38,200 nt of DNA from Bacillota bacterium (GTDB lineage: Bacteria; Bacillota; Sulfobacillia; JAJZYS01; JAJYTV01). Of the stretch, positions 46-24,769 are shown piece after piece. The stretch lies in contig JAJZIE010000003.1 in the NCBI GenBank assembly GCA_021810725.1, forward strand, positions 1 to 38,200. Direction: 5' to 3'. The notes under the pieces were generated by a model. It did no database searches and was not told where the DNA came from. It worked only from the letters and a program-made list of their open reading frames with translations. The position numbers and the translations under genes are program-made. Position 1 is the stretch's first letter; every line of letters starts with the position of its first letter.

Positions 46-61
46 TGTGATATTAACCACA
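46..61. promoter_or_regulatory. TGTGA-N6-TCACA-type box 1 (Rex- or Crp/Fnr-like) upstream of nuoBCD
   Basis: TGTGA-TATTAA-CCACA followed by A. It lies in an AT-rich patch of otherwise GC-rich DNA. Confidence 0.6.
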
Positions 62-68: not shown

Positions 69-84
69 GGTGATACATATCACA
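69..84. promoter_or_regulatory. TGTGA-N6-TCACA-type box 2 (Rex- or Crp/Fnr-like) upstream of nuoBCD
   Basis: GGTGA-TACATA-TCACA followed by A. It starts 23 bp after box 1. Confidence 0.65.
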
Positions 85-133: not shown

Positions 134-2407
134 ATGTCCGTTGACGCAACACGGCGGGATTTTATCACGACACGCCTCGATGCGCTGGCGCGCTGGGCGG
201 AAAGCGGATCCATGTGGCCGCTGCCCTTCGGTACCGCGTGCTGCGCCATCGAGTTCATGGCGGTCGGCTCCTCCCGGTACGACATCGCGCGCTTCGGTTC
301 CGAAGTGCTGCGTTTCAGCCCCAGGCAGTCCGACCTGCTCCTGGTGATGGGCACGATCACCGACAAGATGGTGCCGATCCTGAAGAACGTGTACGAACAG
401 ATCGCGGACCCCAAGTGGGTCATCGCGATGGGCGCTTGCACGGTCTCGGGCGGCTTTTACCGTTCCTACCACGTGGTCCAGGGCATCGACGAGTTCCTGC
501 CGGTGGACCTCTACATTCCGGGGTGCCCACCGACGCCGGAAGCCGTGCTGCACGCCATCATGCGGCTGCAGCAGGGGATCAAGGACGGGACCTTCCGCCG
601 CGGCGCGAACCAGCGACCACTGCACGTCCGCACGGACGACGCGTCGGTCACGGAGCTCTCGCCGCCCGCCGCCGCGCTCGTGGCCTACTCGACCTCCTCG
701 TCCGACGTGGACGAGGCCTTGGCCGATCGGCTGCGCGCGGCGTTCGGTCCCGGCGTGCTCGGCACGCGCGCCTTCCGCGGCGACCTCACGGTGCGCCTCG
801 AGCGCACCACCCTGCTAGGCGTCGCGCGGCTCCTGCGCGACGACCCGGAGATGCGCTTCGATATGCTGCTCGACGTCTGCGGTGTCGACTACCTCACCCG
901 CACGCCGCGCTTCGACGCCGTCTACCACCTCTGCTCCACCACCACCGGCCATCGGATCCGCCTTGAGGTGGGGGTGCCCGAGGACGACCCGACGGTCGCC
1001 AGCGTGACGCCGATCTGGGCGGGGGCGGGCTGGTTCGAGCGCGAGGCCTACGACCTCTACGGCATCCGCTTCCTTGGCCATCCGGACCTGCGGCGCATCC
1101 TGACGCACGACGGCTTCGGCAACATCCACCCGATGCGCCGGGACTACCCGCCCGGCCTCCGCCAGCCCTTCTTCCAGGCGGCGACGTTGCCCCTAGCCGA
1201 GCGCTCGCCCATCGGCGAGGACGGCCAGGAGATCGTGCAGCACCCGACGATTCTCAATATCGGTCCCTCGCATCCCGCGACGCACGGCACCTTCCGCATC
1301 GTCGCGAGGGTCGACGGCGAGAAGGTGCGCGAGGCGGACGTCGAGCTTGGCTACCTGCACCGCAACTTCGAGAAGATGGCCGAGACCCACACCTACCACA
1401 ACATGATCCCGTACTGCGATCGTCTCAACTACTGCTCGAGCTTCATGAACAGCTCCGGCTTCGCCATGGCCGTCGAAAAGCTGATGGGCGTCACCATCCC
1501 CGAGCGCGCGCAGTCCCTGCGCGTCATCCTGAGCGAGTTCAGCCGCATCATGGACCACGCGGTCTGCATCGGCACGAACCTCATGGACATGGGGCTGATC
1601 AGCAGCTTCTTCTACCTCTGGAACCTGCGCGAGGAGATCTACGACCTCCTCGAGGAGTGCTCGGGCGCCCGCATGATGGTGAGCTTCGTGCGCATCGGCG
1701 GGTTCGCGGAAGACGTGCCACAGGACTTCAGAGAGCGCGTCGAGGCGATCCTCGAGCACGTGCCACCGGTCCTGCGCGACACCGACCGCATGATCACCCG
1801 CAACGCCCTCGCCCGTGACCGCATGCGCGGCGTCGGGGCCATCTCGAAGGAGGACGCCATCGCCTACGGCTTCACGGGGCCGTGCCTGCGGGCCGCCGGC
1901 GAGCCCTACGACGTTCGCCGGGCCTATCCCTACTACCACTACGACGAGTTCGAGTTCGACATCCCGGTGGGCGCCCAGGGCGACGTCTACGACCGCTACC
2001 TCGTGCGGCTCGAGGAGATGCGCCAGAGCCTGCGCATCGTGCGCCAGGCGCTCGACAACCTCCCGGATGGCCCCGTGGTCGTCGATGACGGACGCGTCGC
2101 CCTGCCGCCGAAGCACGGCGTCTACACCAACATCGAGGACATGATGGACCACTTCAAGCTGATCATGGACGGGCATGGCATCCGCCCGCCGGTCGGGGAA
2201 GTGTACGGCTACAGCGAAGCGGCGAACGGCGAGCTCGGCTTCTACATCGTGAGCGACGGCGGCCAGCGACCCTATCGGGTCAAGGTGCGCCCGCCCTCCT
2301 TTGCCATCTACCAGGCCTTCCCCCAGATGATCCGCGGCATGAACCCCGCGGACGTCGTGGCCACCCTCGGCAGCCTCAACATCATCGCAGGAGAAAGCGA
2401 GCGATAG
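134..2407 (+). CDS. nuoBCD: NADH-quinone oxidoreductase subunit B/C/D triple fusion
   Basis: One ORF carries NuoB motifs ([21 protein letters not shown]), NuoC motifs ([24 protein letters not shown]) and NuoD motifs ([37 protein letters not shown]). ATG 134 follows GGGGG; GTG 128 is an alternative start. Confidence 0.95.
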
Positions 2408-2409
2408 CC

Positions 2410-2868
2410 ATGCTGTCCAAGGATGCGCTCCGGGAGATCGAAGCCGCCAGGGCGGAGGAGGATTCCCCCCGCCATGCGCTCCTCACGGCCCTGCGGGTCA
2501 CGCAGGGCGAGCGCCGCCAGGTGGGACCCGAGGAGATCACCTACATCGCGGACCTCCTGGGACTGAGCCCGGCGTTGGTGCAGGGCGTGGCGCGCTTCTA
2601 CGACCAGATCTCCGCTACCCCCACAGGCCAGCACGTCCTGAGCCTCTGCCGCGGCATCTCCTGCTACCTCTGTGGCGCGGACGAGGTGGCGGCGGCGGTG
2701 GGGGAGCTCCTGGGGATTCGGCCGGGCGAGACCACGGCGGACGGTCGCTTCACCCTGCGCCTCGTCGAATGCGTCGGCGACTGCGATCGCGCTCCCGCGG
2801 CCATGGTCGACGACCGCTTCGTCGGGCCCGTGGCGGCCGTCGCCATCGACAACCTGACCAAGATGTAA
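2410..2868 (+). CDS. nuoE: NADH-quinone oxidoreductase subunit E (2Fe-2S)
   Basis: CRGISC...ECVGDCDRAP 2Fe-2S ligands, VARFY motif and operon position. Confidence 0.93.
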   Translation: MLSKDALREIEAARAEEDSPRHALLTALRVTQGERRQVGPEEITYIADLLGLSPALVQGVARFYDQISATPTGQHVLSLCRGISCYLCGADEVAAAVGELLGIRPGETTADGRFTLRLVECVGDCDRAPAAMVDDRFVGPVAAVAIDNLTKM

Positions 2869-2879
2869 GGAGGTACGGC

Positions 2880-4244
<1,365 letters not shown>

Positions 4245-4253
4245 AAGGGGGCG

Positions 4254-5906
4254 ATGAGCGGTGCCGATCTGACGATCGATGGACGGCAGATCGAGGTGGA
4301 GCAGGGCGTAAGCGTGATCCAGGCCGCCGATCGCCTCGGCGTCGAGATCCCGCGCTTCTGCTACCATCCCGATCTCAGGCCCGAGGGCAACTGCCGCATG
4401 TGTCTCGTCGAGGTCGACGGCTTTCCGAAGCCCGTCGTGGCCTGCGCGACGCCGGTCGTCGACGGCATGGTGGTGAAGACGCCGCACACGAGCCCTGTGG
4501 CGTCGCGAGCCGCGCGTGGCGTGCTCGAGTTCCTGCTGGTGAACCACCCGCTCGACTGCCCGATCTGCGACCAGGCGGGCGAGTGCTCGCTGCAGGACTT
4601 CTACATGCACCCGGACTACGGCCAGCACAGGAGCCACGTCGACCCCGAGGAGAAGATCCACAAGCGCAAGCGGGTCAACCTCGGCCCGCGCATCGTGCTC
4701 GACGCCGAGCGCTGCGTGATGTGCTCGCGCTGCGTCCGCTTCTCGGAGGAGGTCTCGGGCTACGCGGAACTGCAGTTCGTCCGCCGCGGCAACCACGTCG
4801 AGCTGACGGCGTTCGAGGACCGGGTCCTGGAGGACCCCTACGCCGGCAACCTGGCCGACGTCTGCCCGGTCGGCGCACTGACGTCGCGGGACTTCCGCTT
4901 CAAGCGACGCGTCTGGCATCTGAGTCACACGGACTCCGTCTGCGCCGGCTGCAGCACCGGCTGCAACGTGCGCATCGACCATTTCGACGGCCACATCGAG
5001 CGCGTCGTGCCGCGGCGCAATCCCGAAGTGAACCGGAGCTGGATCTGCGACGAGGGTCGTCTCAGCTATCAGAGCCTCACGTCGATTCCTCGCCTCACGC
5101 ATCCGCGCGAGGGCGACCGGCGACTCCTCTGGGCCGAGGCCATCGCCCTCGCGCACGAGACCCTGCACAGCGCGGGCGCCGTCACGGGGCTGCCGCTCGC
5201 GGCGCTCGCCTCGGCCTCCGCCACCAACGAGAGTCTCTGGCTCTTCCGGCAGTACGTCGAGGTGGCATTCCCCCAGCACCTTCTCGAGTTCCGTCTGGGC
5301 CGCGAGATGGAGACGGTCGCCGAGCGCGAGGACAAGCTCCTGCGCCGTGCCGACAAGCACCCGAACACGATGGGCGCCCTCCATCTCGGCTACGGCCGCG
5401 GTCTCGGGCTTAAGGGCCTCCTGGACTTGGCCGAAAAGGGCGAGCTGTCTCGGCTCCTCATGCTCTACTATCCGCCGCTCGTCGGACAGGAGGCCGAGGA
5501 GACGAAGGAGCGGATCGCGGGCCTGCTCGCACGGGTTCCGGAGAGCGTCGTGCTGACGACGCACGAGCTGCCCTACTTGACTGGGGCGAAGCTTCTCCTG
5601 CCGGTGGCGGCGTGGTCCGAGGAGGAGGGCACCTACACGAACCACCAAGGGGTGACGCAGCACGTCGGCAAGGCGATTTCCTTGCGCGAGGCGGTGCGCC
5701 CCGCGACCGACATCCTGGGCGATCTCTGGCAGGTGGCCACCGCCGCCCGCCGCGAGACAGCCCCGGAGCGCCTCTTCCGCGAGATCGCGATGAGCGTGCC
5801 CGCGTTCCGCGGCCTTAGCTACGCCGGGCTCGAGAGCCGGGCGGCGACGGTCTACCCACCGGAAGGGAGGATGCACTATGGCCAGGAAGGCTTCGCGGGT
5901 CGTTGA
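4254..5906 (+). CDS. nuoG: NADH-quinone oxidoreductase subunit G (short form, 550 aa)
   Basis: IPRFCYHP..GNCRMC, NHPLDCPICDQAGEC, CVMCSRC..DVCPVGAL and CAGCSTGC..WICDEG Fe-S motifs. The C-terminal region is reduced. Confidence 0.92.
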   Translation: MSGADLTIDGRQIEVEQGVSVIQAADRLGVEIPRFCYHPDLRPEGNCRMCLVEVDGFPKPVVACATPVVDGMVVKTPHTSPVASRAARGVLEFLLVNHPLDCPICDQAGECSLQDFYMHPDYGQHRSHVDPEEKIHKRKRVNLGPRIVLDAERCVMCSRCVRFSEEVSGYAELQFVRRGNHVELTAFEDRVLEDPYAGNLADVCPVGALTSRDFRFKRRVWHLSHTDSVCAGCSTGCNVRIDHFDGHIERVVPRRNPEVNRSWICDEGRLSYQSLTSIPRLTHPREGDRRLLWAEAIALAHETLHSAGAVTGLPLAALASASATNESLWLFRQYVEVAFPQHLLEFRLGREMETVAEREDKLLRRADKHPNTMGALHLGYGRGLGLKGLLDLAEKGELSRLLMLYYPPLVGQEAEETKERIAGLLARVPESVVLTTHELPYLTGAKLLLPVAAWSEEEGTYTNHQGVTQHVGKAISLREAVRPATDILGDLWQVATAARRETAPERLFREIAMSVPAFRGLSYAGLESRAATVYPPEGRMHYGQEGFAGR

Positions 5907-6477
5907 CGTGCGGAGGGCCGCCGAGGCCAGGACGGACGTCCTGAGCACGGCGGCCGGAACGCTCGCCGGCATGGAAGTGACCCTGCGCAACATGGTGCGC
6001 GCGACCGTAGGGCGCGAGCACGTCACGATCCAGTACCCCGAGCAGCGCAAGCCGTACTCCAGGCGCTTCCGGGGCGTGCATGTCCTGACGCATCGCGCCG
6101 ACGGCAGCCTCAAGTGCACGGCCTGCTACCTCTGCGAGACGGTCTGCCCCGCCCAGTGCATCACGATCGAGGCCAAGGACGTGGACGACCCGAGGGTGGA
6201 GAAGGCGCCGTCCCGCTACGAGATCGACCTGGCACGCTGCATCTTCTGCGGCTTCTGCGTCGAGGCGTGCCCGGAGGAGGCCCTGATCATGAGCCGCGAG
6301 TATGACCTCACGGCCATCACGCGCGGCCCAGAAACCCTGACCTACGGCATCGACCGGCTGACCGAGCGCCCGGAGATCGCGGCCTATGGCGCGGGCTTTC
6401 GGCCTCACATGCAGTATCCGCTGGTGGAGAGCTACCTGCCCGGCGAAGGACCGGAGAAGGCAGCCGCCGAGGAATAG
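5878..6477 (+). CDS. nuoI: NADH-quinone oxidoreductase subunit I (2x4Fe-4S)
   Basis: TIQYPEQ, RFRG, CTACYLCETVCP, CIFCGFCVEACP. GGGAGG RBS. Confidence 0.95.
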   Translation: MARKASRVVDVRRAAEARTDVLSTAAGTLAGMEVTLRNMVRATVGREHVTIQYPEQRKPYSRRFRGVHVLTHRADGSLKCTACYLCETVCPAQCITIEAKDVDDPRVEKAPSRYEIDLARCIFCGFCVEACPEEALIMSREYDLTAITRGPETLTYGIDRLTERPEIAAYGAGFRPHMQYPLVESYLPGEGPEKAAAEE

Positions 6478-6500
6478 GATCGGGCTCGACAAAGACCGTC

Positions 6501-6531
6501 GCGCCCACGCCGCTCCGTGCGTGGGCGCTTT
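6501..6531 (+). terminator. Probable intrinsic terminator after nuoI
   Basis: Perfect 10-bp stem GCGCCCACGC / GCGTGGGCGC followed by TTT(CGTT). Confidence 0.6.
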
Positions 6532-6644: not shown

Positions 6645-6696
6645 TCCCGCCCATCCGCGAGCGACAACGCTTTAAGGAGCAGTGGGAGGTGCCTTT

Positions 6697-7185
6697 GTGC
6701 CTATGGGACCTTCTTTGGTGGACCCGCACGCGCATCAGGACATCCATGACGCCGCGCGGGCCGAGATGGAATTCGGCACGGAGATCCTGCTGATGTCCTT
6801 GCGCGGCCAGGACGCCGCCACGTCCGTGCGCCTCGCCTCGGAGCTCCTCTGCGCGTGGCGGGAGCGTGTGCTGACGCACGCGGACGCCGAGGAGAAGGAC
6901 GTCTTCCCGCAGGTGCTCGCGGCGTCACCCGAGCTGGCGTCCGAGGTGGCCGCGCTCGTGCGGGACCACGATCTCATGCGGCTCCTCGTCGACGAGACCG
7001 AGCAGGGACTCGCCCGCGAGGGTTCGGTGACGGGGGCCGCGCTTGGGCGCCTGCAGGCACTCCTGCACATCCAGCGTCTGCACGCCCTCTACGAGGAGCA
7101 GACCTTCCTGCCTCAGGTTTCCGACGTGCTGGCTCAGGCGAAGACACCTTCCGAGGGGGCGGCTGAACATTGGCCAAACGCGTGA
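6697..7185 (+). CDS. Hemerythrin (HHE cation-binding) domain protein
   Basis: H..IH, HADAEE, DH and HALYEE di-iron ligand pattern. GGAGG RBS 7 nt before GTG 6697. The ORF overlaps the narG start. Confidence 0.85.
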   Translation: MPMGPSLVDPHAHQDIHDAARAEMEFGTEILLMSLRGQDAATSVRLASELLCAWRERVLTHADAEEKDVFPQVLAASPELASEVAALVRDHDLMRLLVDETEQGLAREGSVTGAALGRLQALLHIQRLHALYEEQTFLPQVSDVLAQAKTPSEGAAEHWPNA

Positions 7186-10100
7186 ACGCACTAGGTAACG
7201 CACTCACCTACCTGCGCCGCGGTCCAGGCCTGAACGGGGGCTGGAGCGAGGAGAGCCCGCGCGGGCGACAGTGGGAGCGGCTCTACCGGGACCGCTGGCA
7301 GCACGACAAGGTGGTGCGCTCGACGCACGGCGTCAACTGCACCGGCTCCTGCAGCTGGAAGATCCACGTCAAGGATGGCGTGATCACCTGGGAGACGCAG
7401 CAGACCGACTACCCGTCGCTCGGTCCCGACACCCCGGAGTACGAACCGCGCGGCTGCCCGCGCGGGGCAAGCTTCTCCTGGTACGAGTACAGCCCCTTGC
7501 GCATCCGCTACCCCTACGTGCGCGGCAGCCTCATCACCGCCTGGCGGGAGGCGATCGCCGAGACCAAGGATCCTGTCGCTGCCTGGCGTCTCCTCACAGC
7601 GAGCCCCGAGCGCCGGGCGGCGTATCGGTCCCAGCGTGGCAAGGGCGGCTTCGTGCGGGCCAGCTGGGAGGAGATCTCCGAGCTGATCGCGGCCGCCACC
7701 CTCGAGACGGTGCGCCACTACGGACCGGACCGCGTCATCGGCTTCACGCCGATCCCGGCGATGTCGATGGTCAGCTACGCCGCCGGCACGCGTTTTCTCT
7801 CGCTGATCGGCGGCACGATCCTCAGCTTCTACGACTGGTACGCGGACCTGCCGATCGCGTCGCCCCAGATCTGGGGCGAGCAGACCGACGTGCCCGAGAG
7901 CGCGGACTGGTTCAACGCGGAGTACATGATCGTCTGGGGCACGAACCTGCCGATGACGCGCACCCCGGATGCCCACTTCATGGTGGAGGCGCGCTACAAG
8001 GGCACGCGCGTCGCCGCCGTCAGCCCGGACTACGCCGAGTACGTCAAGTTCTCGGATCTCTGGCTGCCGGCCAAGGCCGGCACGGACGCGGCCCTCGCCA
8101 TGGCGATGATGCACGTCATCCTGAAGGAGTTCTACGTCGACCGCCAAGTGCCGTACTTCCAGGACTACGCCCGCCGCTTCACAGACCTTCCCTTCCTGGT
8201 GCGGCTCGTCGAGCGGGACGGCAGGCACTACGCGGACCGCTTCCTGCGCCTGTCGGACCTCGGCGAGGGCGGTGACGCGGACGCCTGGAAGACCGTCGTC
8301 TGGGACGAGGCGGAGAACGCGCCCGCCTGCCCGAACGGGAGCCTCGGCTACCGCTGGGACGGGTCGGGGCGCTGGAACCTGAAGCTCGAAGGGGACGGCG
8401 GCGCGCCGATCTCCCCCGCCCTCACGTTCCTCGGCGGCGAGGACCGCACAGTCGAGCTCGACTTCCCCTACTTCGGCGGCGGCAAGGGCGAGACTCTTCG
8501 CCGCCACGTCCCGGTGCGGCGGATCGAGGGCAGCGCGGGACCGCAGATCGTCACGACCGTCTTCGACCTGCTCCTCGCGAGCGCCGGGGTGGGCAGAGGC
8601 CTACCCGGAGACTATCCCCAGGACTACGACGACCCGCGCCCCTACACGCCGGCCTGGCAGGAGGCGATCACGGGCGTTGACCGCAAACTCGCGATCCAGG
8701 TGGCGCGCGAGTTCGCCGAAGTGGCCGAGAAGACCCGCGGCCGCGCCATGATCGCGATGGGCGCCGGCATCAACCACTGGTACCACAGCGACGTGATCTA
8801 CCGCGCCATTGTCGGCCTTGTCCTCTTGACGGGCTGCGAAGGGGTCAACGGCGGCGGCTGGGCGCATTACGTCGGCCAGGAGAAGGTGCGGCCGCTCGAG
8901 GGCTGGGCCACGCTCGCCTTCGCAGGCGACTGGGTGCCCGCCGCGCGGCAGCAGAACGGCACCTCCTTCTTCTACTTCGCCACCGACCAGTTCCGCTACG
9001 AGGACATGGGCACGGACGAGCTCACCTGGCCCGGTGGCGGCACGTTCTCCTCGATGCACCCGGCGGACGTCAACGCGCTCGCGGCTCGGCTCGGTTGGCT
9101 GCCGTCCTATCCGCAGTTCCGCGAGAACTCGCTCGAGACGGCGAGGAAGGCGAGGGCGGATAGCCAGGACGACCTCGGGGCGGTGCGCTCCGTCGCGCGG
9201 CGGCTCCAGGATCGGGACCTCGAGCTGTCGGTCGACGCGCCGGATCTCGAGGAGAACTTCCCGCGCGTCTTCTTCCTCTGGCGGGCGAACCTCCTCACCT
9301 CAAGCGGCAAGGGGCACGAGTACTTCCTCAGGCACCTCCTCGGCGCCGACGGCCACGTGCTCTCCGGCGAGGAGGGCAAGCGCCGTCCGCAGACGGTGGC
9401 CTGCGAGGGCGAGGCACCGCGCGGCAAGCTGGACCTCCTTGTCGACATCGACTTCCGCATGACGGGCAGCGGCCTCTACGCCGATATCGTGCTGCCCGCC
9501 GCCACCTGGTACGAGAAGCACGACATCTCGAGCACCGACATGCATCCCTTCGTCCATCCCTTCAATCCGGCGATCTCGCCTCCCTGGGAGACGAGGAGCG
9601 ACTGGGACACCTTCCGCACGATCGCGCGCAGGTTCTCGGAACTCGCCAGGGACCACCTGCCCGCGCAGGAGGACCTTGTGATGGCGCCTCTCCTGCACGA
9701 CACGCCGCAGGAGACCGCCCAGCCTTTCGGCGAGGTGCGGGACTGGCGCAAGGGCGAGGCGGAGGCGGTGCCGGGGAGGACGATGCCGCGCTTCCTCTTC
9801 GTCCAGCGCGACTACCCGCACGTCTACGAGCAGATGACGACGCTCGGCCCGCGCGCGGAAGGCCAGATCGTGCAGAAGGGCATCACCATCCCGACGCAGC
9901 ACGCCTACGCTGCGCTCCGCCAGGAGCTCGGAGCGAGCCGACGCGAAGGGCCCGGCAAGGGCCGGCCGCGGCTCGAGACGGCCGAGCAGGCCGCGAACGC
10001 GATCCTCAGGCTCTCCGGCGCGACGAACGGTCACCAGGCGGTGGCGGCCTGGAAGGCGCTCGAGCCGGCGACGGGCCTGCGGCTCGAGGACGTCGCGAAG

Positions 10101-10844
10101 GGCCGTGAGGAGGACGTCTACACCGTCAAGGACCTGACCGTCCAGCCGCGGCTCGCGATCGCCGCACCGGTCTGGAGCGGGCTCGAGGCCCACGGCCGGC
10201 GCTACGCGCCCTTCACGGCCAACGTCGAGCTCGAGATCCCGTGGCGCACGCTCACTGGGCGCCAGCACTTCTATGTCGACCACGCGATGATGCTCGACTT
10301 CGGCGAGGGGCTGCCCCTTTATAGGCCGCCGCTCACCGCGCACCCGTTCCCGGCTGGCCAGGCGCCCCCCGGGGAGGGCAGGCAGCTCACGCTGCGCTAC
10401 CTGACGCCGCACGGCAAGTGGGGCATCCACTCCACCTACACCGACACCCTGACGATGCTCACCCTGTTCCGCGGCGGCCCGACGATCTGGCTGAGCCCGC
10501 AGGACGCCGAGGCGCTCGCGGTCAAGGACAACGACTGGCTCGAGGCCCTGAACCGCAACGGCGCCGTCGCGGCCCGGGCGGTGGTGAGCCACCGCATCCC
10601 CGAGGGCGTCGCCATCATGTACCACGCCCAGGACCGCACGATCGCCGTGCCCGGCACGAAGGCGACCCAGGACCGCGGCGGCGCGCACAACAGCCTGACG
10701 CGCGTTCTCCCGAAGCCGACCCACATGATCGGCGGCTACGCGCAACTCAGCTACGGCTTCAACTACTACGGCCCGACAGGACACCAGCGGGACGAGATGA
10801 CCGTGGTGCGACGCCTTGGGGAGGTGGACTGGCTTGCGGATTAA
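7170..10844 (+). CDS. narG: Respiratory nitrate reductase alpha subunit
   Basis: RSTHGVNCTGSCSWK, EPRGCPRGASFSWY, FYDWYADLP, GGGWAHYVGQEK, GGYAQLSYGFNYYGPTG; 1224 aa. Confidence 0.98.
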   Translation: MAKRVNALGNALTYLRRGPGLNGGWSEESPRGRQWERLYRDRWQHDKVVRSTHGVNCTGSCSWKIHVKDGVITWETQQTDYPSLGPDTPEYEPRGCPRGASFSWYEYSPLRIRYPYVRGSLITAWREAIAETKDPVAAWRLLTASPERRAAYRSQRGKGGFVRASWEEISELIAAATLETVRHYGPDRVIGFTPIPAMSMVSYAAGTRFLSLIGGTILSFYDWYADLPIASPQIWGEQTDVPESADWFNAEYMIVWGTNLPMTRTPDAHFMVEARYKGTRVAAVSPDYAEYVKFSDLWLPAKAGTDAALAMAMMHVILKEFYVDRQVPYFQDYARRFTDLPFLVRLVERDGRHYADRFLRLSDLGEGGDADAWKTVVWDEAENAPACPNGSLGYRWDGSGRWNLKLEGDGGAPISPALTFLGGEDRTVELDFPYFGGGKGETLRRHVPVRRIEGSAGPQIVTTVFDLLLASAGVGRGLPGDYPQDYDDPRPYTPAWQEAITGVDRKLAIQVAREFAEVAEKTRGRAMIAMGAGINHWYHSDVIYRAIVGLVLLTGCEGVNGGGWAHYVGQEKVRPLEGWATLAFAGDWVPAARQQNGTSFFYFATDQFRYEDMGTDELTWPGGGTFSSMHPADVNALAARLGWLPSYPQFRENSLETARKARADSQDDLGAVRSVARRLQDRDLELSVDAPDLEENFPRVFFLWRANLLTSSGKGHEYFLRHLLGADGHVLSGEEGKRRPQTVACEGEAPRGKLDLLVDIDFRMTGSGLYADIVLPAATWYEKHDISSTDMHPFVHPFNPAISPPWETRSDWDTFRTIARRFSELARDHLPAQEDLVMAPLLHDTPQETAQPFGEVRDWRKGEAEAVPGRTMPRFLFVQRDYPHVYEQMTTLGPRAEGQIVQKGITIPTQHAYAALRQELGASRREGPGKGRPRLETAEQAANAILRLSGATNGHQAVAAWKALEPATGLRLEDVAKGREEDVYTVKDLTVQPRLAIAAPVWSGLEAHGRRYAPFTANVELEIPWRTLTGRQHFYVDHAMMLDFGEGLPLYRPPLTAHPFPAGQAPPGEGRQLTLRYLTPHGKWGIHSTYTDTLTMLTLFRGGPTIWLSPQDAEALAVKDNDWLEALNRNGAVAARAVVSHRIPEGVAIMYHAQDRTIAVPGTKATQDRGGAHNSLTRVLPKPTHMIGGYAQLSYGFNYYGPTGHQRDEMTVVRRLGEVDWLAD

Positions 10845-12351
10845 GGCGCAGGTGGCCATGGTGATGAACCTCGACAAGTGCATCGGCTGCCACACCTGCA
10901 GCGTGACCTGCAAGAACACGTGGACGAACCGGTCCGGGGCCGAGTACATGTGGTTCAACAACGTCGAGACGAAGCCCGGCGTCGGCTATCCGAAGCAGTG
11001 GGAGAACCAGGAGCGCTACCGCGGCGGCTGGCAGCTTCGAGACGGCAAGCTCAGCTTGCGCGCCGGCGGGCCGATCGAGAAGCTCGTCCACATCTTCCAC
11101 AACCCCGACCTGCCCGAGATCGACGACTACTACGAGCCCTGGACCTACGACTACGAGAACCTGATCGACAGCCCTGAGCGCCGCTACCAGCCGGTGGCGA
11201 GGCCGCGCTCGCAGCTGACCGGCGAGCCGATGGATCAGCCTTCCTGGGGCCCGAACTGGGAGGACGACCTCGCCGGAGCGCCGGAGCACGCCCTCTCCGA
11301 CCCGAACCTGAGGGGACTCGAGGAGCACATCGCCTTCGAGTATGAGCAGGCCTTCATGTTCTACCTGCCGCGCATCTGCGAGCACTGCCTGAACCCCGCC
11401 TGCGTCGCCGCCTGTCCCTCCGGGGCGATGTACAAGCGCGAGGAGGACGGCATCGTTCTCGTGGACCAGGACGCCTGCCGCGGCTGGCGCTTCTGCGTCA
11501 GCGCCTGTCCATACAAGAAGGTCTACTTCAACTGGCAGACCCACAAGGCGGAGAAGTGCACCTTCTGCTACCCGCGCATCGAGGCCGGCCTGCCGACGGT
11601 GTGCTCCGAGACCTGCGTCGGCCGCATCCGTTACCTCGGCGTCGTCTTCTACGACGCGGACCGCGTCAAGGCGGCGGCGTCGGTGGCGGACGAGAAGGAG
11701 CTCCTCGCGGCGCAACTCTCCGTCTTCCTCGATCCGAGCGACCCGGAAGTCATCCGGGCGGCGCATGAGGCGGGCATCACCGACGCCTGGATCGAGGCGG
11801 CGCAGCGCTCGCCGGTCTACAAGATGGCGGTGGAGTGGGGCATCGCGCTGCCGCTGCACCCGGAGTACCGCACGTTGCCGATGGTCTGGTACGTGCCGCC
11901 GCTGAGCCCGATCATGAGCCACGTCGAGGAGACGCGTCCCGCCACCACGGCGGACGAGATCCTTCCCGCGATCGAGGCGATGCGCATTCCGATGGAGTAC
12001 CTCGCGAACCTGCTCTCGGCCGGTGACGTGGACGTCATCCGCACGGTGCTGAGGCGCCTCGCGACGATGCGCGCCTTCCTGCGCGGCCGGGCGCTCGGCC
12101 TGCCTGAGGACGGCCGGATGCTTGAGGCCGCGGGGCTCACCGCGCAGCAGGTGGAGGACATGATGCGGCTTCTCGGCATCGCGAAGTACGACGAGCGCTT
12201 CGTCATCCCGACGGCCCGCAGGGAGGGCGAGCGGGACCTTCAGGCCCTGCAGGGCGGCTGCAGCCTCGACGACGTGCTGCCGCCCGAGGGCGCCTTCGCG
12301 AAGGGACGCCAGCCGATCGAACTGCGCGCCTGGACGGGGGAGCCGCGATGA
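10834..12351 (+). CDS. narH: Respiratory nitrate reductase beta subunit
   Basis: MRIKAQVAMVMNLDKCIGCHTCSVTCKN, PRICEHCLNPAC, CRGWRFCVSACPYKK. TTG 10834 follows GGAGG. Confidence 0.98.
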   Translation: MRIKAQVAMVMNLDKCIGCHTCSVTCKNTWTNRSGAEYMWFNNVETKPGVGYPKQWENQERYRGGWQLRDGKLSLRAGGPIEKLVHIFHNPDLPEIDDYYEPWTYDYENLIDSPERRYQPVARPRSQLTGEPMDQPSWGPNWEDDLAGAPEHALSDPNLRGLEEHIAFEYEQAFMFYLPRICEHCLNPACVAACPSGAMYKREEDGIVLVDQDACRGWRFCVSACPYKKVYFNWQTHKAEKCTFCYPRIEAGLPTVCSETCVGRIRYLGVVFYDADRVKAAASVADEKELLAAQLSVFLDPSDPEVIRAAHEAGITDAWIEAAQRSPVYKMAVEWGIALPLHPEYRTLPMVWYVPPLSPIMSHVEETRPATTADEILPAIEAMRIPMEYLANLLSAGDVDVIRTVLRRLATMRAFLRGRALGLPEDGRMLEAAGLTAQQVEDMMRLLGIAKYDERFVIPTARREGERDLQALQGGCSLDDVLPPEGAFAKGRQPIELRAWTGEPR

Positions 12352-12917
12352 GCGGGCGGACGCTGCGCAAGGTCGGCGCTCTGCTCCTCGGCTACCCGGA
12401 CCGGAACCGGTTCGGACTCGTGCTCTCCGCGCTCGACGACGTGGAGGATCCCGGCGCGCGGGACCTCCTGCGCCGCTTCCTCGAGGAGTCCCTCGCCTTG
12501 CCGGACGCGGAGCGCGAAGGGCGCTATGTCGCCACCTTCGACTTCCGCGAGGATCTCTCGCTCTATCTCACGTTTCAGGAGCTCGGAGACGCCCGGGACC
12601 GCGCGCCGCAGCTGCTGGCCCTGAAGCGGGAGATGCGCCATTGCGGCTTCCTCTGCCCGAAGGACGAGCTGCCGGACTACATCCCGCTGCTGCTCGAGTT
12701 CCTGGCGGAATGCCCGGACGGCTACGACGATCGGCCGCTTTCCTATCGCCTCGCGCGAGCCCTCGCGGGCATCGCGGAGCGCCTTGGGGAGGATCACCCG
12801 TACCTGCCGCTGCTGCGGGCGATCCTCACGGCCCTGCCGTCCGACGCCGCGGCTCAGGAGAAGCCCATGGGCGAAGCGGAAGACCTCGAACTGCCGTATC
12901 CCTTGCGCTACCTCTAG
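12348..12917 (+). CDS. narJ: Nitrate reductase molybdenum cofactor assembly chaperone
   Basis: LLLGYP, YVATFDF, LYLT, ELPDYIPLLLEF. It lies between narH and narI. Confidence 0.95.
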   Translation: MSGRTLRKVGALLLGYPDRNRFGLVLSALDDVEDPGARDLLRRFLEESLALPDAEREGRYVATFDFREDLSLYLTFQELGDARDRAPQLLALKREMRHCGFLCPKDELPDYIPLLLEFLAECPDGYDDRPLSYRLARALAGIAERLGEDHPYLPLLRAILTALPSDAAAQEKPMGEAEDLELPYPLRYL

Positions 12918-12935
12918 CCTTAGGGAGGTGATCCG

Positions 12936-13640
12936 TTGAGCGAATTCCTCTGGGTCGTCTACCCGTATCTCTGCCTGATGGTGCTGGTGGTGGGCATGCT
13001 CACCCGCTACAACTACGACCAGATCGGCTGGACGTCGAAGTCCAGCGAGATCCTGGAGAAGAGACTGCTCGGGCTGGGCAGCCCGCTCTTCCACTGGGGG
13101 ATCATCTTCGTCTTCCTCGGCCACGTCGCGGGTCTTCTCGTGCCGATCGAGGTCTACCAGGCCCTCGGCGTCTCGGAGCACCTCTACCACATGGGCGCGA
13201 TGGCCATGGGCGGCATCACCGGTCTCATGACCCTCGTCGGGCTCCTGCTGCTGCTTTGGCGCCGCCTCAGCGTCCGCCGCGTCAAAAGCCACACATCCAC
13301 GGGAGACTGGGTTGCGCTCGGCTTCCTCATCGCCACGGTGGCGCTCGGACTGTCGATGACGCTCGTCTACAACGTCAGCCACGTCGCCTACGAATACCGC
13401 ACGACGGTCGGGCCGTGGATCCGTGGCGTCATCCTGCTGCATCCGCAGGCGGCCCTGATGGCCCACGTGCCGCTCGTGCTGCAGCTGCACATCCTGACGG
13501 CGCTCGCGCTCTTCGCGGTTTCGCCGTTCACGCGGCTCGTCCACATCTTCAGCCTGCCGCTCGCGTACCTGAGGCGCAGGCCGATCCAGTACCGACGGCG
13601 CACGCCCGCCGTGCCCTGTGAACCGGCTCCGCGAGATTGA
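12936..13640 (+). CDS. narI: Respiratory nitrate reductase gamma subunit (cytochrome b)
   Basis: WTSKSSEILE, LFHWGI..GH, LH..FTRLVH heme ligands; about five TM helices. Confidence 0.97.
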   Translation: MSEFLWVVYPYLCLMVLVVGMLTRYNYDQIGWTSKSSEILEKRLLGLGSPLFHWGIIFVFLGHVAGLLVPIEVYQALGVSEHLYHMGAMAMGGITGLMTLVGLLLLLWRRLSVRRVKSHTSTGDWVALGFLIATVALGLSMTLVYNVSHVAYEYRTTVGPWIRGVILLHPQAALMAHVPLVLQLHILTALALFAVSPFTRLVHIFSLPLAYLRRRPIQYRRRTPAVPCEPAPRD

Positions 13641-13970: not shown

Positions 13971-15038
13971 CTGGCAGAAGCCCGGAAGGCCCCGCGTAGA
14001 GCTCTTGACGGCCTCTATCCGGGCTACTTCGCGTATGTGATGGCGACCGGCATCGTCTCGACCGCGGCCGGTCTCTTCCGGCTGCGGGACTTCTCCCTCG
14101 TCCTGCTGGCGGCGGCGACCGTGGGCTACCTCGTGCTCATAGGGCTCTACGCCCTGCGCTTCGTCACGGCGGCCGCCGCGGTGCGCGAGGATGCCCGCTC
14201 GCCCGGCAGGGCGTTCGGCTTCTTCACCTTCGTCGCCGCGTCGAACGTGCTCTCGGCGCGCTACGCGGCGGCGGGCGACCTTCGCATCGCCGCGGGCCTC
14301 GCTCTCGTCGGCGCGGTCTCCTGGGTCGTGCTCACCTACACCATCCCGGTCGGGCTGATGCTGGGGAGCTCCGATCGCCCCCTTGGAACGAGCGTCAACG
14401 CTTCCTGGCTGATCTGGGTGGTGGCGACGCAGTCGGTCTCGACGGCGGCGTCCGTGCTGTCGTCCGCGGGCCTGGACCGTGCCCTGCTCGGCTTCCTGGC
14501 GGCGGTCTTTTGGGGCATCGGCTCGCTGCTCTACCTCATCCTGATCACGATCGTCACCGCGCGCATGCTGCTCGCCGCGATGCCCGCGACCGAGATGACC
14601 CCGCCCTACTGGATCAACATGGGCGCCACGGCGATCACCGTCCTCGCGGGGGTGCGCCTCCTTGCGACCCACCTGCCCGGGCGCCTGCACGAACTCGCGC
14701 CGGTCGTGACGGGCATCTCGTTCATGTTCTGGGCCTTCGGCAGCTTCTGGATCCCGGCGGTGGTGCTGTTCGGCGTCTGGCGCTATGGCCGCGGCGGGCA
14801 TCCCGTCGTCTACGAGCCGGCGCTCTGGAGCATCGTCTTCCCGATGGGCATGTACGTCACCGCGACCGACCTCCTCGGACATGTGGCGAGACTCCCATGG
14901 CTGCCTCCGCTCGCGGGCGGAGCGAGCTGGGGCGCGTATGCGGCATGGGTGGCGGTCTTTCTTTTCATGCTCTACGACCTGCTCGACCGGCGTGGCCCGA
15001 CCGCCGCGCCGGCGGCATCCCCGGGCCAAGACCTTTAA
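13971..15038 (+). CDS. TDT/SLAC1-family (tellurite resistance/C4-dicarboxylate) membrane transporter
   Basis: LYPGYFAYVMATGIVS, FFTFVAA, WLIWVVATQS, PPYWINMGATAIT, WSIVFPMGMY. The conserved N-terminus extends upstream of the called GTG 14037 to an in-frame CTG at 13971, 7 nt after AGGAGG. Confidence 0.9.
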   Translation: MAEARKAPRRALDGLYPGYFAYVMATGIVSTAAGLFRLRDFSLVLLAAATVGYLVLIGLYALRFVTAAAAVREDARSPGRAFGFFTFVAASNVLSARYAAAGDLRIAAGLALVGAVSWVVLTYTIPVGLMLGSSDRPLGTSVNASWLIWVVATQSVSTAASVLSSAGLDRALLGFLAAVFWGIGSLLYLILITIVTARMLLAAMPATEMTPPYWINMGATAITVLAGVRLLATHLPGRLHELAPVVTGISFMFWAFGSFWIPAVVLFGVWRYGRGGHPVVYEPALWSIVFPMGMYVTATDLLGHVARLPWLPPLAGGASWGAYAAWVAVFLFMLYDLLDRRGPTAAPAASPGQDL

Positions 15039-16333: not shown

Positions 16334-16364
16334 AGACCGGGGACCATCAAGGAGGGTGAGCATC

Positions 16365-18981: not shown

Positions 18982-19107
18982 AGGATCCACCTCCTCTGCA
19001 TGTGCAGCGTACCATGCGATACTTTGCGCGCATGCGTCCTGCATCACACAAAGGATCGTCACGGCTCACGGCCTGATTGAGGCACGCGCACCGCGGCCTT
19101 TGGTTTG

Positions 19108-19117
19108 CGTAAGGGTG
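19108..19117. promoter_or_regulatory. CGTAAGGGTG motif upstream of moaA
   Basis: Identical 10-mer at 21346-21355 in the tatA / Mo-enzyme intergenic region. Confidence 0.35.
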
Positions 19118-20281: not shown

Positions 20282-20332
20282 AGGGCTGTGGGAACGCCCA
20301 TGGCCTTGGCGGGAGAGGGGAATCCGCCGGAA

Positions 20333-20348: not shown

Positions 20349-20404
20349 TTTTCCGCCATGTGGCGCGGCTAGCATGACGGCGCAGACAGCTGGAGAGTGA
20401 CGGC

Positions 20405-21028
20405 ATGAGTGGACCGATCCGCGTCTACCTCGTCGATGCTCGCTCTATTTGGCGCTCCGGCCTGCGCGAGGCACTGGAAGCGGACCTGGCCTTCCTCGTC
20501 AAGGGCGAAGCGCCGGACCATGCTGCCGCCCGGCAGGATCCGGAGTTTGCGCGTAGCGATGTGCTCGTGACAAGCTGGCCGCCTCTCAGGTCGGGAGATC
20601 TGCCGGACCTGGGGCGGATACCCACGCTGGCGCTGATGCGTGAAGGGGCCGAACCGGGTGCAGGCATCAGGGCCTTGCAGGGCGGCGCCGCTGCCTGCCT
20701 TTATGACGATCTGGGCGCCAAGGACTTGCGCTCGGCGGTCCGCTTCGTGCACGAGGGCGGCTGCCTCGTCGACCCGCTGGTCGCCGCTGCCGTCACGCAG
20801 CGGATCCACGAGCCGCAGCGAGCCGTGCCCCAGCTCAGCGAAGTCGAAGCCAAGGTGGCCGCCTGTATCGCGCGCGGCTGCACCAACCGCGAGATCGCGA
20901 GCGAGACGGGGCTGGCCGAGCGCACCGTCGTGACGATCATCTCCTCCTTGCTGCAAAAGCTTGGCGTGCCCACGCGCAGCGCCGTGGCCGCATGGTGGAT
21001 CAGGCAAGGGAGCCACCCGGGCGACTGA
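20405..21028 (+). CDS. NarL/LuxR-family regulator with degenerate receiver domain
   Basis: C-terminal LuxR HTH (LSEVE..VAACIARGCTNREIA..L..TV..KLGVPTR). The N-terminus has a REC-like fold (IRVYLVD) without the canonical Asp. Confidence 0.88.
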   Translation: MSGPIRVYLVDARSIWRSGLREALEADLAFLVKGEAPDHAAARQDPEFARSDVLVTSWPPLRSGDLPDLGRIPTLALMREGAEPGAGIRALQGGAAACLYDDLGAKDLRSAVRFVHEGGCLVDPLVAAAVTQRIHEPQRAVPQLSEVEAKVAACIARGCTNREIASETGLAERTVVTIISSLLQKLGVPTRSAVAAWWIRQGSHPGD

Positions 21029-21436: not shown

Positions 21437-21561
21437 TGCCATGTGCGGTCTGACGACGCCGGTCCACTTTCGGACAATAAAGGCGGAGCCAACGCCGGAT
21501 GAGGACACGGGCACACCTTTGGAAGAATGTAGCCCGTAGACATGTCGGGAGGTGGCTCACA

Positions 21562-24036
21562 ATGCCGAAAATCCGTCGGCGGACATTCCTCAAGGGAGTC
21601 GCGGGCGGCGTCGGCCTTGCCGCACTAAGCACCCCGAGCTTCCGCCTGCTGGAGGCCGCAGCCGCGGGCAAGAGCAAGCCGCAGGGGAGTCGGGACCAGA
21701 CGTTCCGCACCGGCCACTCGAACAACTGCGACGGCTCGTGCGGACATCTCGTGCACGTGCGGGATGGACGTGTACGCTTGATCGAGGGTGCCCCCTGGGA
21801 CGACACGACCGTATCGGGAGCGCAGGCGCCGGACTACCACGCTCGCATCTGCCTGCGTGGCATCTCGCAGATCCAGAACACCTATAGCCCCGACCGCATC
21901 CGCTATCCCTACAAGCGGATCGGTCCGCGCGGCTCCGGCCGCTGGCAGCGCATCACCTGGGGAGAAGCCACCTCGACCATCGCCCAGAAGTTCCAGGAGA
22001 TCCAGCAGAAGTACGGCAAGACGGCGATCTGGATCCCGCCGTACACGGGTTCGCTCAGTGTTCTCGAGGGCGTGATCGGAGCGGGCTACCGCTTCGCGAG
22101 CGTCATCGGCGCGTCCGGTGGGGACTTCGAAGGAGACAACGAGGGCGACTCCGCGACTCCGGCCGGCTTCAACTACGTCCTGGTCGACCCGACGAACCCC
22201 GCGAACGGCGGCGGCTTTCTCGACGGTCATGAATTCACGGACTTCATGAACTCCAAGGTTATTTTCCTCTGGGCCAACAACCTCGCGGAGACGTCGATCC
22301 CCGACTGGCGCACGGTGATGGCCGCCCGCAAGAACGGCACGAAAGTGGTCGCGCTGGACCCGCGCTTCACGCCGACCTCGGCCTCCGCCGACGTTTGGGT
22401 GCCGATCCGACCGGGTACGGACCCTGCGCTAGTGGACGGCATGATCCGCGACATCCTGCAACGGAACATGATCAACGAGGACTATCTGAGGTCCTACAGC
22501 GTCGCTCCGTTCCTGGTGCGCGAGGACACGAAGCTCTTCCTGAGGGAGAAGGACGTGACGCCGGGCGGATCCGACGCGTACATGGTCATGGACAAGGACG
22601 GAAGCCTGAAGGCGGTCACGGACCCGAACCTCAAGCAGGCGCGGCTCTACGCCGCCACGACCGTGGGCAAGATGCGTGTGCGCACGGCTTTGCAGGCGCT
22701 ACGCGACGCCATGGAACCCTACACGCCCGAGTACGTCGCGAAGATCACCGACGTCAAGCCCGAGATGGTGACACAGCTCGCCGAGCTGTACGCCCAGGCG
22801 AACCCCGCGGCGATCAAGTGCGGCTTCGGCCTGTCGCACTGGTACCGGGGTGACCTCACCTACCAAGCGATGCTCACGATGGCGGCCCTGACGGGCAACA
22901 TCGGCGTGCACGGCGGCGGCGTGACCACATACAGCGGCGCCCTGCTCACCACCGCTTACGACCTCGGCGACTGGCTCTTCCCAGATGGCAAGAGCTACAC
23001 CTACCTACCGCCGATGCAAGCCTGCGACGCAATGCTCAAGAACGACCCCTATCCCGTGCGGGCCGCCTGGTTCGTCGTGGACAACTACGCCCAGCAGATG
23101 TCGGACAAGAACAAGGTGCGCAAAGCGCTCGAATCCCTCGACTTCCTCGTTGTCTCGGACTATGTCATGTCGGCGACGGCCGACTTGGCGGACATTGTCC
23201 TGCCGAGCTGCACCTACCTCGAGAAGACCGACCTCCTTGGCAGCGGCAATTACTATCTGCAGTACATGCCCAAGGTGATCGAACCGCTTTGGGAGTCGAA
23301 GTCAGACCTCGACCAGTTCACTATGGTCGCCCGCAAGATGGGCTACGGCAAGTACTTCGACAAGACCCCCGACGAGTACATCACCCAGATCCTGCGCATC
23401 GGCCAGAAGGATGCGGACGCGACGGTGGCCGGGCTGACGTGGGACCAACTGAAGAACGGAGCTCCGCATCTCAACACCGCAACGGTGCCCTACGTGCCGT
23501 TCTTCAACAAGCAGTTCCCGACGAAGTCCGGGCGGATCGAGTTCTACGTCGAGCTGCTGGTGCCGTACGACCAGGAGCTCTGCGGCTACAAGGAACCGAT
23601 CGAAGCGACGCCCTCGAATCCGCTCTACAAGAAGTACCCGCTCGTCTTCCTCTCCACCCACACGCGCTTCCGCACGCACTCGCAGTACACGCACCTGCCC
23701 TGGCTTGACGAGATCAACAACCAGGGCCAGGGCTTCCTGGAGATCAACCCGCGGGACGCCAGGGCGCGTGGCATCGCTGACGGCGCGGTGGTCCGGGTCT
23801 TCAACGACCGTGGCGAGATGAAGGTGCACGCGCGGTACACCGAAGGCATCAAGCCCGGCGTCGTCAACTGCTACCAGGGCGGTTGGGACACGGTCCGCGT
23901 CAAGCAGTACGTCGAGGGCCATCCGAACAACCTGACGCACCAGATTGCGAACCCGGCCCAGTCCATCATCCCGAACTTCCGCTCGAACGCGGCGTACTAC
24001 GACTGCCTCTGCCAAGTCGAACCGGTGGGAGTGTGA
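21562..24036 (+). CDS. Tat-exported Mo-bisPGD (DMSO reductase family) catalytic subunit, substrate unknown
   Basis: Tat motif RRRTFLK; FS0 motif HSNNCDGSC..ICLRG; DPRFT..ADVWVPIRPGTD; ADIVLP; HTRFRTHSQ; EINPRDA C-terminal domain. GGAGG precedes ATG 21562. Confidence 0.93.
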   Translation: MPKIRRRTFLKGVAGGVGLAALSTPSFRLLEAAAAGKSKPQGSRDQTFRTGHSNNCDGSCGHLVHVRDGRVRLIEGAPWDDTTVSGAQAPDYHARICLRGISQIQNTYSPDRIRYPYKRIGPRGSGRWQRITWGEATSTIAQKFQEIQQKYGKTAIWIPPYTGSLSVLEGVIGAGYRFASVIGASGGDFEGDNEGDSATPAGFNYVLVDPTNPANGGGFLDGHEFTDFMNSKVIFLWANNLAETSIPDWRTVMAARKNGTKVVALDPRFTPTSASADVWVPIRPGTDPALVDGMIRDILQRNMINEDYLRSYSVAPFLVREDTKLFLREKDVTPGGSDAYMVMDKDGSLKAVTDPNLKQARLYAATTVGKMRVRTALQALRDAMEPYTPEYVAKITDVKPEMVTQLAELYAQANPAAIKCGFGLSHWYRGDLTYQAMLTMAALTGNIGVHGGGVTTYSGALLTTAYDLGDWLFPDGKSYTYLPPMQACDAMLKNDPYPVRAAWFVVDNYAQQMSDKNKVRKALESLDFLVVSDYVMSATADLADIVLPSCTYLEKTDLLGSGNYYLQYMPKVIEPLWESKSDLDQFTMVARKMGYGKYFDKTPDEYITQILRIGQKDADATVAGLTWDQLKNGAPHLNTATVPYVPFFNKQFPTKSGRIEFYVELLVPYDQELCGYKEPIEATPSNPLYKKYPLVFLSTHTRFRTHSQYTHLPWLDEINNQGQGFLEINPRDARARGIADGAVVRVFNDRGEMKVHARYTEGIKPGVVNCYQGGWDTVRVKQYVEGHPNNLTHQIANPAQSIIPNFRSNAAYYDCLCQVEPVGV

Positions 24037-24042
24037 CGAACG

Positions 24043-24750: not shown

Positions 24751-24769
24751 AGGAAGGGGTTGGCGAACC

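Follow-up and report, generated by a model that had tools for sequence, protein, structure and literature searches.

A nar-linked gene cassette for the hydrophilic arm of complex I in a Bacillota genome with a resident complex I

Why would a bacterium carry, directly before the genes of a respiratory nitrate reductase, a set of genes for only the hydrophilic arm of complex I? The question is raised by a 38,200-bp stretch of DNA from a Bacillota bacterium of the class Sulfobacillia (contig JAJZIE010000003.1 of assembly GCA_021810725.1), called the window below, which opens with the genes nuoBCD-E-F-G-I, referred to here as the cassette, and continues with narGHJI. The window is the entire contig C34 of a draft metagenome-assembled genome (MAG; G000) of 2.66 Mb in 361 contigs, with a completeness of 80.7% and a contamination of 1.9%, and the sequencing runs that hold its sequence are labelled as mine drainage and sediment metagenomes. 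Contamination as the source of the contig was rejected on the grounds of its GC content (0.678, with a genome mean of 0.683) and because six further genomes of related organisms have the cassette on long contigs. What is new here, as far as gene content and phylogeny go, is a peripheral-arm cassette of the type known from Bdellovibrio that occurs as an extra, nar-linked paralogue, preceded by regulatory boxes, in a lineage that has a complete resident complex I.

Gene content of the cassette and of the resident complex I

Positions 134-6477 are, by their predicted products, a self-contained transcription unit for the whole hydrophilic arm of complex I, with both the N module (NuoE, NuoF and NuoG) and the Q module (NuoBCD and NuoI). 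The genes were called from Pfam and NCBIfam profile matches of the window proteins (Table 1), which recover all seven peripheral-arm modules (NuoB, C, D and I; NuoE, F and G) and bear out the tight nuoBCD-E-F-G-I operon that an earlier interpretation from the letters of the DNA, the sequence-only reading, had described. The product of nuoBCD, whose start at ATG 134 is common to orthologues, scores above the cut-offs of TIGR01962 and NF004739 and reaches 724 bits with NF009808 (B/C/D), under the cut-off of 1156 for that family. The true start of nuoF is ATG 2880, preceded by AAGGAGG, and it replaces a start at 2769. NuoG is not full-length, with TIGR01973 matched over positions 1-328 of 606 at a score of 419.5 versus a cut-off of 470, and the same short form is present in the relatives from the split clade described below. 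An extra G after position 4269, 16 nt into the called nuoG, is found in all DNA contigs of run X1 and in the RNA-library contigs of run X4, and the homology of NuoG to its relatives starts at residue 6, so the start of nuoG is perhaps mis-called or the extra base is a strain variant.

No hydrophobic segment was found in the cassette proteins, in which no 19-residue window exceeds 1.6 (NarI, used as a control, reaches 2.29). The families PF00146, PF00361, PF00420 and PF00507, for NuoH, NuoL/M/N, NuoK and NuoA, respectively, have no match on contig C34, which agrees for NuoH, NuoK and NuoL/M/N with the earlier statement that the window lacks nuoH and nuoJ-N. As the window is a whole contig, the further statement that no nuoA precedes the operon rests locally on 133 nt only; it holds over the 1-12 kb upstream of the orthologous loci in the genomes G001, G002, G003, G006 and G013 and at locus L039, where nuoA is likewise missing.

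The sequence-only reading had suggested a search of the whole genome for nuoA/H/J-N and for a second B/C/D/I set, and this search reveals a resident enzyme. Contig C349 carries nuoA-B-C-D-E-F-G-H up to its end, and C276 carries a partial nuoL followed by nuoM and nuoN, so that the resident A-H and L-M-N genes come with their own B, C and D; NuoK had no match in the MAG. The resident nuoI stands alone (177 aa, C288:443-976) and adjoins a glyA-like gene, and a search of the order found a stand-alone nuoI in 13/13 further genomes as well as in G000; in G009 and G010, it is part of the operon region. The resident operon of G006 (C80; L126:5177-7128 region) has the order A-B-C-D-E-F-G-H-J-K-L-M-N and lacks a nuoI between H and J, and that of G013 looks alike.

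Complex I genes were also counted in the most complete relatives (G002, 97%; G006, 96%; G013, 96%). G013 has one NuoH, located in an operon with its own B-G, two NuoD (one resident, one of the cassette) and three NuoL/M/N, all in that same operon. G006 has one complex-I NuoH with its own B-G, the cassette, and two hydrogenase-like sets. In G002, a full A-N operon and an operon with A-H only accompany the cassette, and each of its two NuoH has its own B-G. No orphan membrane-only nuo block was found in the MAG, G002, G006 or G013. Because every complex-I-type NuoH found in these four genomes sits with its own NuoB/C/D, and a resident stand-alone nuoI is present, the cassette is, by gene content, an extra arm and not the missing half of a split enzyme. 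The arrangement named earlier as the one that would speak for an ordinary split enzyme, a membrane block elsewhere in the genome with no second B/C/D/I set, was not found: the resident operons have their own B/C/D, and nuoI lies apart from them.

Other nuo-like genes are present in the MAG. A second nuo operon on C321 (L011:5690-13245) consists of nuoA-H only and is followed by an aldehyde dehydrogenase gene. The same type of operon, with no I and no J-N, also occurs in G002 (C43; L127:755-8308), where 3.7 kb without nuo matches follow it, and, like the cassette, it would have to borrow distal membrane subunits. Two hydrogenase/Mbx/Mrp-like clusters, on C297 and C312, contain NuoH-, NuoL-, NuoB- and NuoD-like genes, and a formate-dehydrogenase-like cluster on C18 (L018:2120-6612) contains NuoE/NuoF/NuoG-like genes.

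Origin, distribution and second copy of the cassette

In a NuoD tree computed with IQ-TREE (31 rows), the cassettes of the window, G003, G006, G013 and L039 form one clade with a support of 100/100, which nests within a clade of fused proteins from Vicinamibacteria, Bdellovibrionota and Acidobacteriota. A branch, also supported at 100/100, parts the cassette NuoD from the resident NuoD of the same genomes. Judged by this placement, the cassette is a horizontally derived xenolog of the resident arm. Among 80 genome loci with a fused BCD, 29 have the order BCD-E-F-G-I without nuoA/H and 23 the order BCD-(G)-I without A/H, 18 are contiguous with nuoA and/or nuoH, and 10 are too short. Each of four complete Bdellovibrio genomes has a single NuoD, in a BCD-E-F-G-I cassette, and a single NuoH at a distance of about 0.8 Mb; the locus of this NuoH was seen in one genome to be nuoA-H-..-L-M-N without B/C/D/I. 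The Acidobacteriota genome G045 also has one NuoD and one NuoH, on separate contigs. In its accessible text, an earlier survey terms such B-C-D fusions "NUO12" and gives Bdellovibrio as an example of a "split" operon (Degli Esposti, 2015, PMC4758237). In the clade of origin, then, cassettes of this kind are, from the layout of these genomes, arms that dock on a separately encoded membrane arm.

The cassette shares with the split NUO12 type of Bdellovibrio the B-C-D fusion, the order nuoBCD-E-F-G-I without A/H/J-N, the short NuoG and the NuoD clade. Bdellovibrio has no other peripheral arm, and a single distant nuoA-H-J-K-L-M-N operon complements the cassette there. Here, the resident enzyme possesses its own B-G and I, and the cassette comes on top of it, occurs in two copies, is preceded by boxes of the CRP/FNR type and lies beside nar.

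The cassette was searched for in 40 genomes (9 of the family, 5 further ones of the order and 26 further ones of the class), in which it was recognised at an identity of at least 77% over the fusion. Seven carry it: six of the nine in the family (G000, G001, G002, G003, G006 and G008), one of the five in the rest of the order (G013) and 0/26 in the rest of the class; G011 and G012, congeners of G013, are without it. Every cassette-bearing genome of the lineage is a draft MAG, and in none of the seven is a membrane subunit gene encoded with the cassette. With a presence threshold of at least 260 bits, NarI was found in all six cassette-bearing genomes of the family, and thus in 6/7 cassette genomes overall. 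A scan of metagenomes gave 80 further loci, all at most 66% identical and none with nar, 40 of which were too short to classify, and no close relatives.

The upstream neighbours of the cassette differ from genome to genome. They are a TetR gene and FmdE in G003, mevalonate-pathway genes in G006 (on a 167-kb contig), an uncharacterised single-pass protein with PD40 proteins in G001 and G002, and a gene for a 766-aa COX1-family protein in G013 (L034:9292-11589, C57), the size of which fits a quinol-type nitric oxide (NO) reductase or oxidase and which has SCO1/SenC downstream. At the Chloroflexota-labelled locus L039, the 1 kb before the cassette contains no recognisable open reading frame (ORF), and genes for MetE, MTHFR and a P-type ATPase come after it. 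The CMD, OsmC and lipoprotein-like genes found at 16.9-19 kb in the window are the neighbours of the cassette in G006, which suggests that the hemerythrin-nar-SLAC1 segment is an insertion between them. Directly 3' of nuoI and on the same strand, G006 (L031:8785-9699) and G008 (L038:692-1615) encode a polytopic membrane protein that is about 300 aa long and matches no Pfam family, the two versions being 78% identical. It was considered as an anchor for the cassette and rejected, its homologue in the MAG (53%) being unlinked (C326:9520-10374). A gene for a 394-aa protein in the window (17884-19065, minus strand) was rejected for the same role, as its product is lipoprotein-like and not polytopic and has no Pfam match.

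A second cassette is present in the MAG. On the minus strand of C26, narG-H-J-I is followed after about 190 nt, on the same strand, by a nuoBCD that runs off the contig, and C37 begins within the NuoD domain, after which come E-F-G (550 aa)-I and a convergent SLAC1 gene. Since the nucleotide identity of C26 and C37 to C34 climbs to 0.92-0.98 at both contig breaks, we infer that the two contigs are one locus, broken by a near-identical stretch. The proteins of this copy are identical to those of the window at 81-96% for BCD, 64% for NuoE, 85% for NuoF, 75% for NuoG, 79% for NuoI, 67% for NarG, 70% for NarH, 43% for NarJ, 58% for NarI and 69% for SLAC1. At the DNA level, the paralogues are 63-88% identical over most of nuoBCD and reach 90-98% in the part of NuoC-D at which C26 and C37 are broken (C34:1000-2350), a pattern that may point to gene conversion between them; the sequence of C34 over that interval could be partly collapsed assembly. 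G001 shows both arrangements, nuo before nar and nar before nuo, and G003 has the cassette beside nar as well. A count of three cassettes, based on the C26/C37 copy and contig C93 of G001, was set aside; two per genome is likelier, and C93, whose reading frame is broken at BCD residue 661/662, looks chimeric.

Regulation, signs of function and neighbouring genes

The regulatory boxes that had been proposed upstream of the operon (46-84) hold up as two palindromes, each one mismatch away from TGTGA-N6-TCACA, a motif which we take to be of the CRP/Bacillus-Fnr type. Sites this close to the motif number just 20 in the whole assembly, and the two boxes lie 23 bp apart in its most AT-rich context. 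G003 and G002 retain both, at about -83 and -60, and the leader of G002 aligns with the 127-nt leader of the window; G001 has a perfect palindrome at -60 though its flanking DNA diverges. Paired boxes are restricted to the nar-linked genus: none were found at the cassette loci away from nar in G006, G008 and G013, and at L039 the only candidates are weaker sites about 160 nt upstream. The genome encodes at least five CRP/FNR-family helix-turn-helix matches above the Pfam cut-off, none of them inside the window; proteins of this family are encoded on C14, C200, C174, C28 and C24. The terminator that had been noticed past nuoI is also recognisable, as a hairpin with a weak T tail (Table 1).

The quinone site of the Q module appears intact. 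In the published structure of the Thermus thermophilus enzyme, His38, Tyr87 and Asp139 of Nqo4 are quinone-site residues, and an alignment to 2fug_4 finds their equivalents kept in the cassette NuoD, within HPATHG, RLNYCSS and LMDMG; the tandem-Cys motif of NuoB for cluster N2, CCAIE, is readable at 238-252. By these residues, the cassette Q module is still quinone-reducing. The ratios of nonsynonymous to synonymous substitution rates (dN/dS) against G003 are 0.10 for BCD, 0.14 for E, 0.11 for F, 0.20 for G and 0.08 for I, and those against G006 and G013 are 0.13-0.31; the cassette is under purifying selection and is probably expressed. Contigs of the metatranscriptome run X4 cover positions 122-1171 and 2191-6473 with 0-2 differing letters and span the BCD/E/F, F/G and G/I junctions. 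The same run gives little or no contig cover in most bins of narG-narI and SLAC1 (7.5-15.1 kb), which DNA runs do cover; being assembled, such RNA contigs cannot rank expression, show that nar is silent or mark transcript ends at 122 and 6473. Finally, a complex prediction with the cassette NuoB and NuoD domains and the resident NuoH of C321, all supplied as alignments, scored 0.72, versus 0.60 for a control in which NuoD was replaced, which speaks neither for nor against docking, and the pair resembles solved structures.

Table 1. Features of the window, with the families or sequence properties by which they were recognised.
Feature	Position	Strand	Basis and remarks
CRP/FNR-type palindrome 1, TGTGATATTAACCACA	46..61	.	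1 mismatch to TGTGA-N6-TCACA
CRP/FNR-type palindrome 2, GGTGATACATATCACA	69..84	.	1 mismatch to TGTGA-N6-TCACA
nuoBCD, fused NuoB-NuoC-NuoD, 757 aa, Q module	134..2407	+	Pfam PF01058+PF00329+PF00346
nuoE, 152 aa	2410..2868	+	PF01257; NF005722 at its cut-off
nuoF, 454 aa	2880..4244	+	PF01512, PF10589, SLBB; NF010120 above cut-off
nuoG, short form, 550 aa	4254..5906	+	Fer2_4, NADH-G_4Fe-4S_3, Fer4_Nqo3 and Molybdop_Fe4S4 domains
nuoI, 199 aa, 2x[4Fe-4S]	5878..6477	+	Fer4 families; TIGR01971 above cut-off
Terminator-like hairpin after nuoI	6501..6528	+	10-pair stem, 9 G-C, weak T tail (TTTCGTT)
Hemerythrin-domain gene	6682..7185	+	PF01814; overlaps narG start
narG-narH-narJ-narI, respiratory nitrate reductase	7170..13640	+	Pfam families for all four
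SLAC1/TehA-family anion channel	14037..15038	+	PF03595; also adjoins second cassette
MoaA	18848..20278		
LuxR-type regulator	20378..21025		1-mismatch CRP-type box at 20333-20348 upstream
Mo-oxidoreductase / 4Fe-4S / NrfD set (Psr-like Mo-enzyme)	21481..25987		
Poly-ferredoxin, 470 aa	26619..28028		

The position of the cassette directly before nar, as described earlier, was confirmed, with one hemerythrin gene in between. This gene, one of two hemerythrin-HHE genes in the window (the other at 16179-16820), looks translationally coupled to nar, whose start it overlaps by 16 nt, and may encode an NO/O2-sensing or Fe-S-repair protein; the same gene separates nuoI from narG in G003. SLAC1/TehA paralogues stand beside both nar/nuo loci (that of the second is at C37:4470-5576, minus strand), and the protein is a candidate nitrate/nitrite channel. 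No NarK-type gene of the major facilitator superfamily was seen among the scanned ORFs of the window. Further downstream, the region 18848-28028 looks like an anaerobic-respiration island.

Possible roles of the cassette and comparison with known systems

The reading preferred here, which is given about an even chance of being right, is that the cassette encodes an accessory peripheral arm under anaerobic control, which would assemble on the membrane arm of the resident enzyme and so feed Nar. A CRP/FNR-family regulator acting at the two upstream palindromes would turn the cassette on under anoxia or nitrate; the anchorless products would then assemble on the resident NuoA, H, J, K, L, M and N, displacing the resident arm; and the resulting isoform, an alternative NADH:menaquinone oxidoreductase, would give quinol to NarGHI. 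This reading is preferred because the cassette has no anchor, keeps its quinone-site chemistry and belongs to a clade that works with a distant membrane operon, and because no orphan membrane arm was found. Its wider form, one proton-pumping membrane arm with interchangeable hydrophilic arms, and thus a hybrid complex I with arms of different origin that are swapped under anoxia or nitrate, is possible and is put somewhat below even.

Several observations weigh against such an arm. The B, D and F proteins of the cassette are only 43-54% identical to the resident B, D and F that they would replace, and complex I subunits are described, in the accessible part of one study, as generally lost or transferred together, with pressure against hybrid enzymes (Spero et al., 2015, PMC4453560). 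The tie to nitrate is also narrow. The synteny of nuoBCD-E-F-G-I with narGHJI, whose recurrence in other genomes the sequence-only reading had proposed to test, is seen within genus g1 only (G000 twice, G001 and G003) and not in G006, G008, G013 and the Chloroflexota-labelled L039, where the cassette lies away from nar; among 160 more distant loci, a nar match is near just one, on a contig of a congener. That reading is sustained in its description of a stand-alone operon for the N and Q modules, with its own boxes and terminator, before nar, and curtailed in its nitrate link, which is limited to one genus. NarI had no match in G013 with the query used, and it is present without a cassette in G005, G019, G020, G022, G030 and G031, while the two nar-linked loci of the MAG may stem from one duplication and hence may not be independent. 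The cover by run X4 is a hint of expression only, since it consists of assembled contigs from one library that may contain DNA, and a MAG that is 80.7% complete leaves room for an unassembled membrane arm.

The last point bears on an ordinary split complex I, in which a dedicated nuoA-H-J-N operon would exist and be unassembled in the drafts. Bdellovibrio and the Acidobacteriota genome G045 have precisely this arrangement, and the missing NuoK match in the MAG would fit it too, but every complex-I-type NuoH found in G002, G006 and G013 lies in an operon that includes its own NuoB-G, and the only three NuoL/M/N matches of G013 belong to its one operon, so that this explanation is very improbable. 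A cassette that operates without any membrane arm is a different matter. It would be a non-pumping NADH dehydrogenase, peripheral at the membrane or docked on NarI or another membrane protein, that passes electrons to menaquinone or to Nar, and would form a "nitrate respirasome" like that proposed for Nrc of Thermus. The lack of a membrane subunit gene with the cassette in all seven lineage genomes would suit such an enzyme, and so would its position directly after narI at the second locus; the available text on Thermus reports a nar-linked NADH dehydrogenase with a CRP-family activator and two-hybrid contacts between NrcE and NarI (PMC7694296). The polytopic protein encoded after nuoI in G006 and G008 could be counted on the same side, yet it is unlinked to the cassette in the MAG. 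Moreover, the cassette has no hydrophobic segment of its own and occurs without Nar in G013, the quinone-site residues that it keeps are ones whose usual partner is NuoH, and its closest relatives, those of Bdellovibrio, have to function together with NuoH; on the whole, an enzyme of this kind is unlikely.

The cassette could also be an accessory isoform with no specific tie to nitrate, a spare arm or retained xenolog whose adjacency to nar is one local rearrangement or duplication in an anaerobic respiration island. The loci away from nar are what would be expected of such an isoform, the neighbours retained in G006 look as if nar had been inserted between them, and the window also has MoaA, the Psr-like Mo-enzyme set and the LuxR-type regulator. 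Against this, both paralogous loci retain the adjacency despite a protein divergence of 19-57%, paired boxes occur only in the nar-linked genus, and NarI is found in all but one of the cassette genomes; the explanation is held to be rather improbable. Hardly any weight is given to reverse operation, in which the arm would carry out quinol-to-NAD+ reverse electron flow during lithotrophic growth and the Nar-type enzyme would work toward nitrite oxidation. Complex I is reversible in general, and the mine drainage and sediment labels of the runs are compatible with such a lifestyle, but the CRP/FNR-type boxes, the NarI-type gamma subunit and NarJ suit ordinary nitrate respiration, and nothing specific favours the reversal.

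Known systems offer partial parallels to the accessory arm. Exchange of parts on one core complex is familiar from cyanobacterial NDH-1, whose isoforms retune the same core with exchangeable NdhD/NdhF paralogues; there, distal membrane subunits are exchanged, whereas here it would be the whole hydrophilic arm. The nrcDEFN operon of Thermus thermophilus is likewise a dedicated NADH dehydrogenase operon beside nar, and the accessible text describes it as transcribed separately, in need of a CRP-family activator, and dispensable or patchy among strains (PMC7694296). According to the same text, Nrc is composed of a ferredoxin, a polytopic membrane protein, an SdhB-like Fe-S protein and an NDH-2-like flavoenzyme (PMC7694296). 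Judged by their Pfam domains, the cassette proteins are unrelated to these, as the cassette has complex I domains only and no membrane subunit. Some bacteria have more than one complex I set of different origin in a genome, presumably for different conditions; as far as the available text goes, these sets are whole 14-gene operons (PMC4453560), whereas here the hydrophilic arm alone has been duplicated or acquired. The 11-subunit enzymes without NuoEFG also illustrate that complex I modules can be separately encoded and combined, and are, as described in the accessible parts of the two sources, the opposite case, with a membrane arm and Q module lacking the N module (PMC3144371; PMC11238625), whereas the cassette has the N and Q modules without a membrane arm. 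The resident operon of the lineage does contain nuoEFG. In a literature search, no account was found of an arm-only cassette that accompanies a complete complex I or adjoins nar, and the supplements of PMC4758237 (figure S2) and PMC4453560 may show such clusters.

The 14 subunits of complex I are usually regarded as one unit that is inherited together, and here one or two foreign sets of genes for the electron-input arm alone are kept under purifying selection. If the hybrid enzyme proposed above is real, it would provide the first example of a complex I in which a whole arm is swapped, and a natural exception to the reported rule that its subunits are inherited and transferred as one set. An arm that exchanges on the resident membrane arm would provide a natural system for the study of recognition between hydrophilic and membrane arms, would reveal how much divergence is tolerated at their interface, and would allow the question of why a cell should adjust NADH oxidation or quinone reduction to anaerobic chains of low potential. 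An arm that works free of a membrane arm would instead represent a new type of NADH dehydrogenase, made from components of complex I. In both cases, calls of the presence or absence of complex I in MAGs, and counts of nuo paralogues, must recognise arm-only cassettes.

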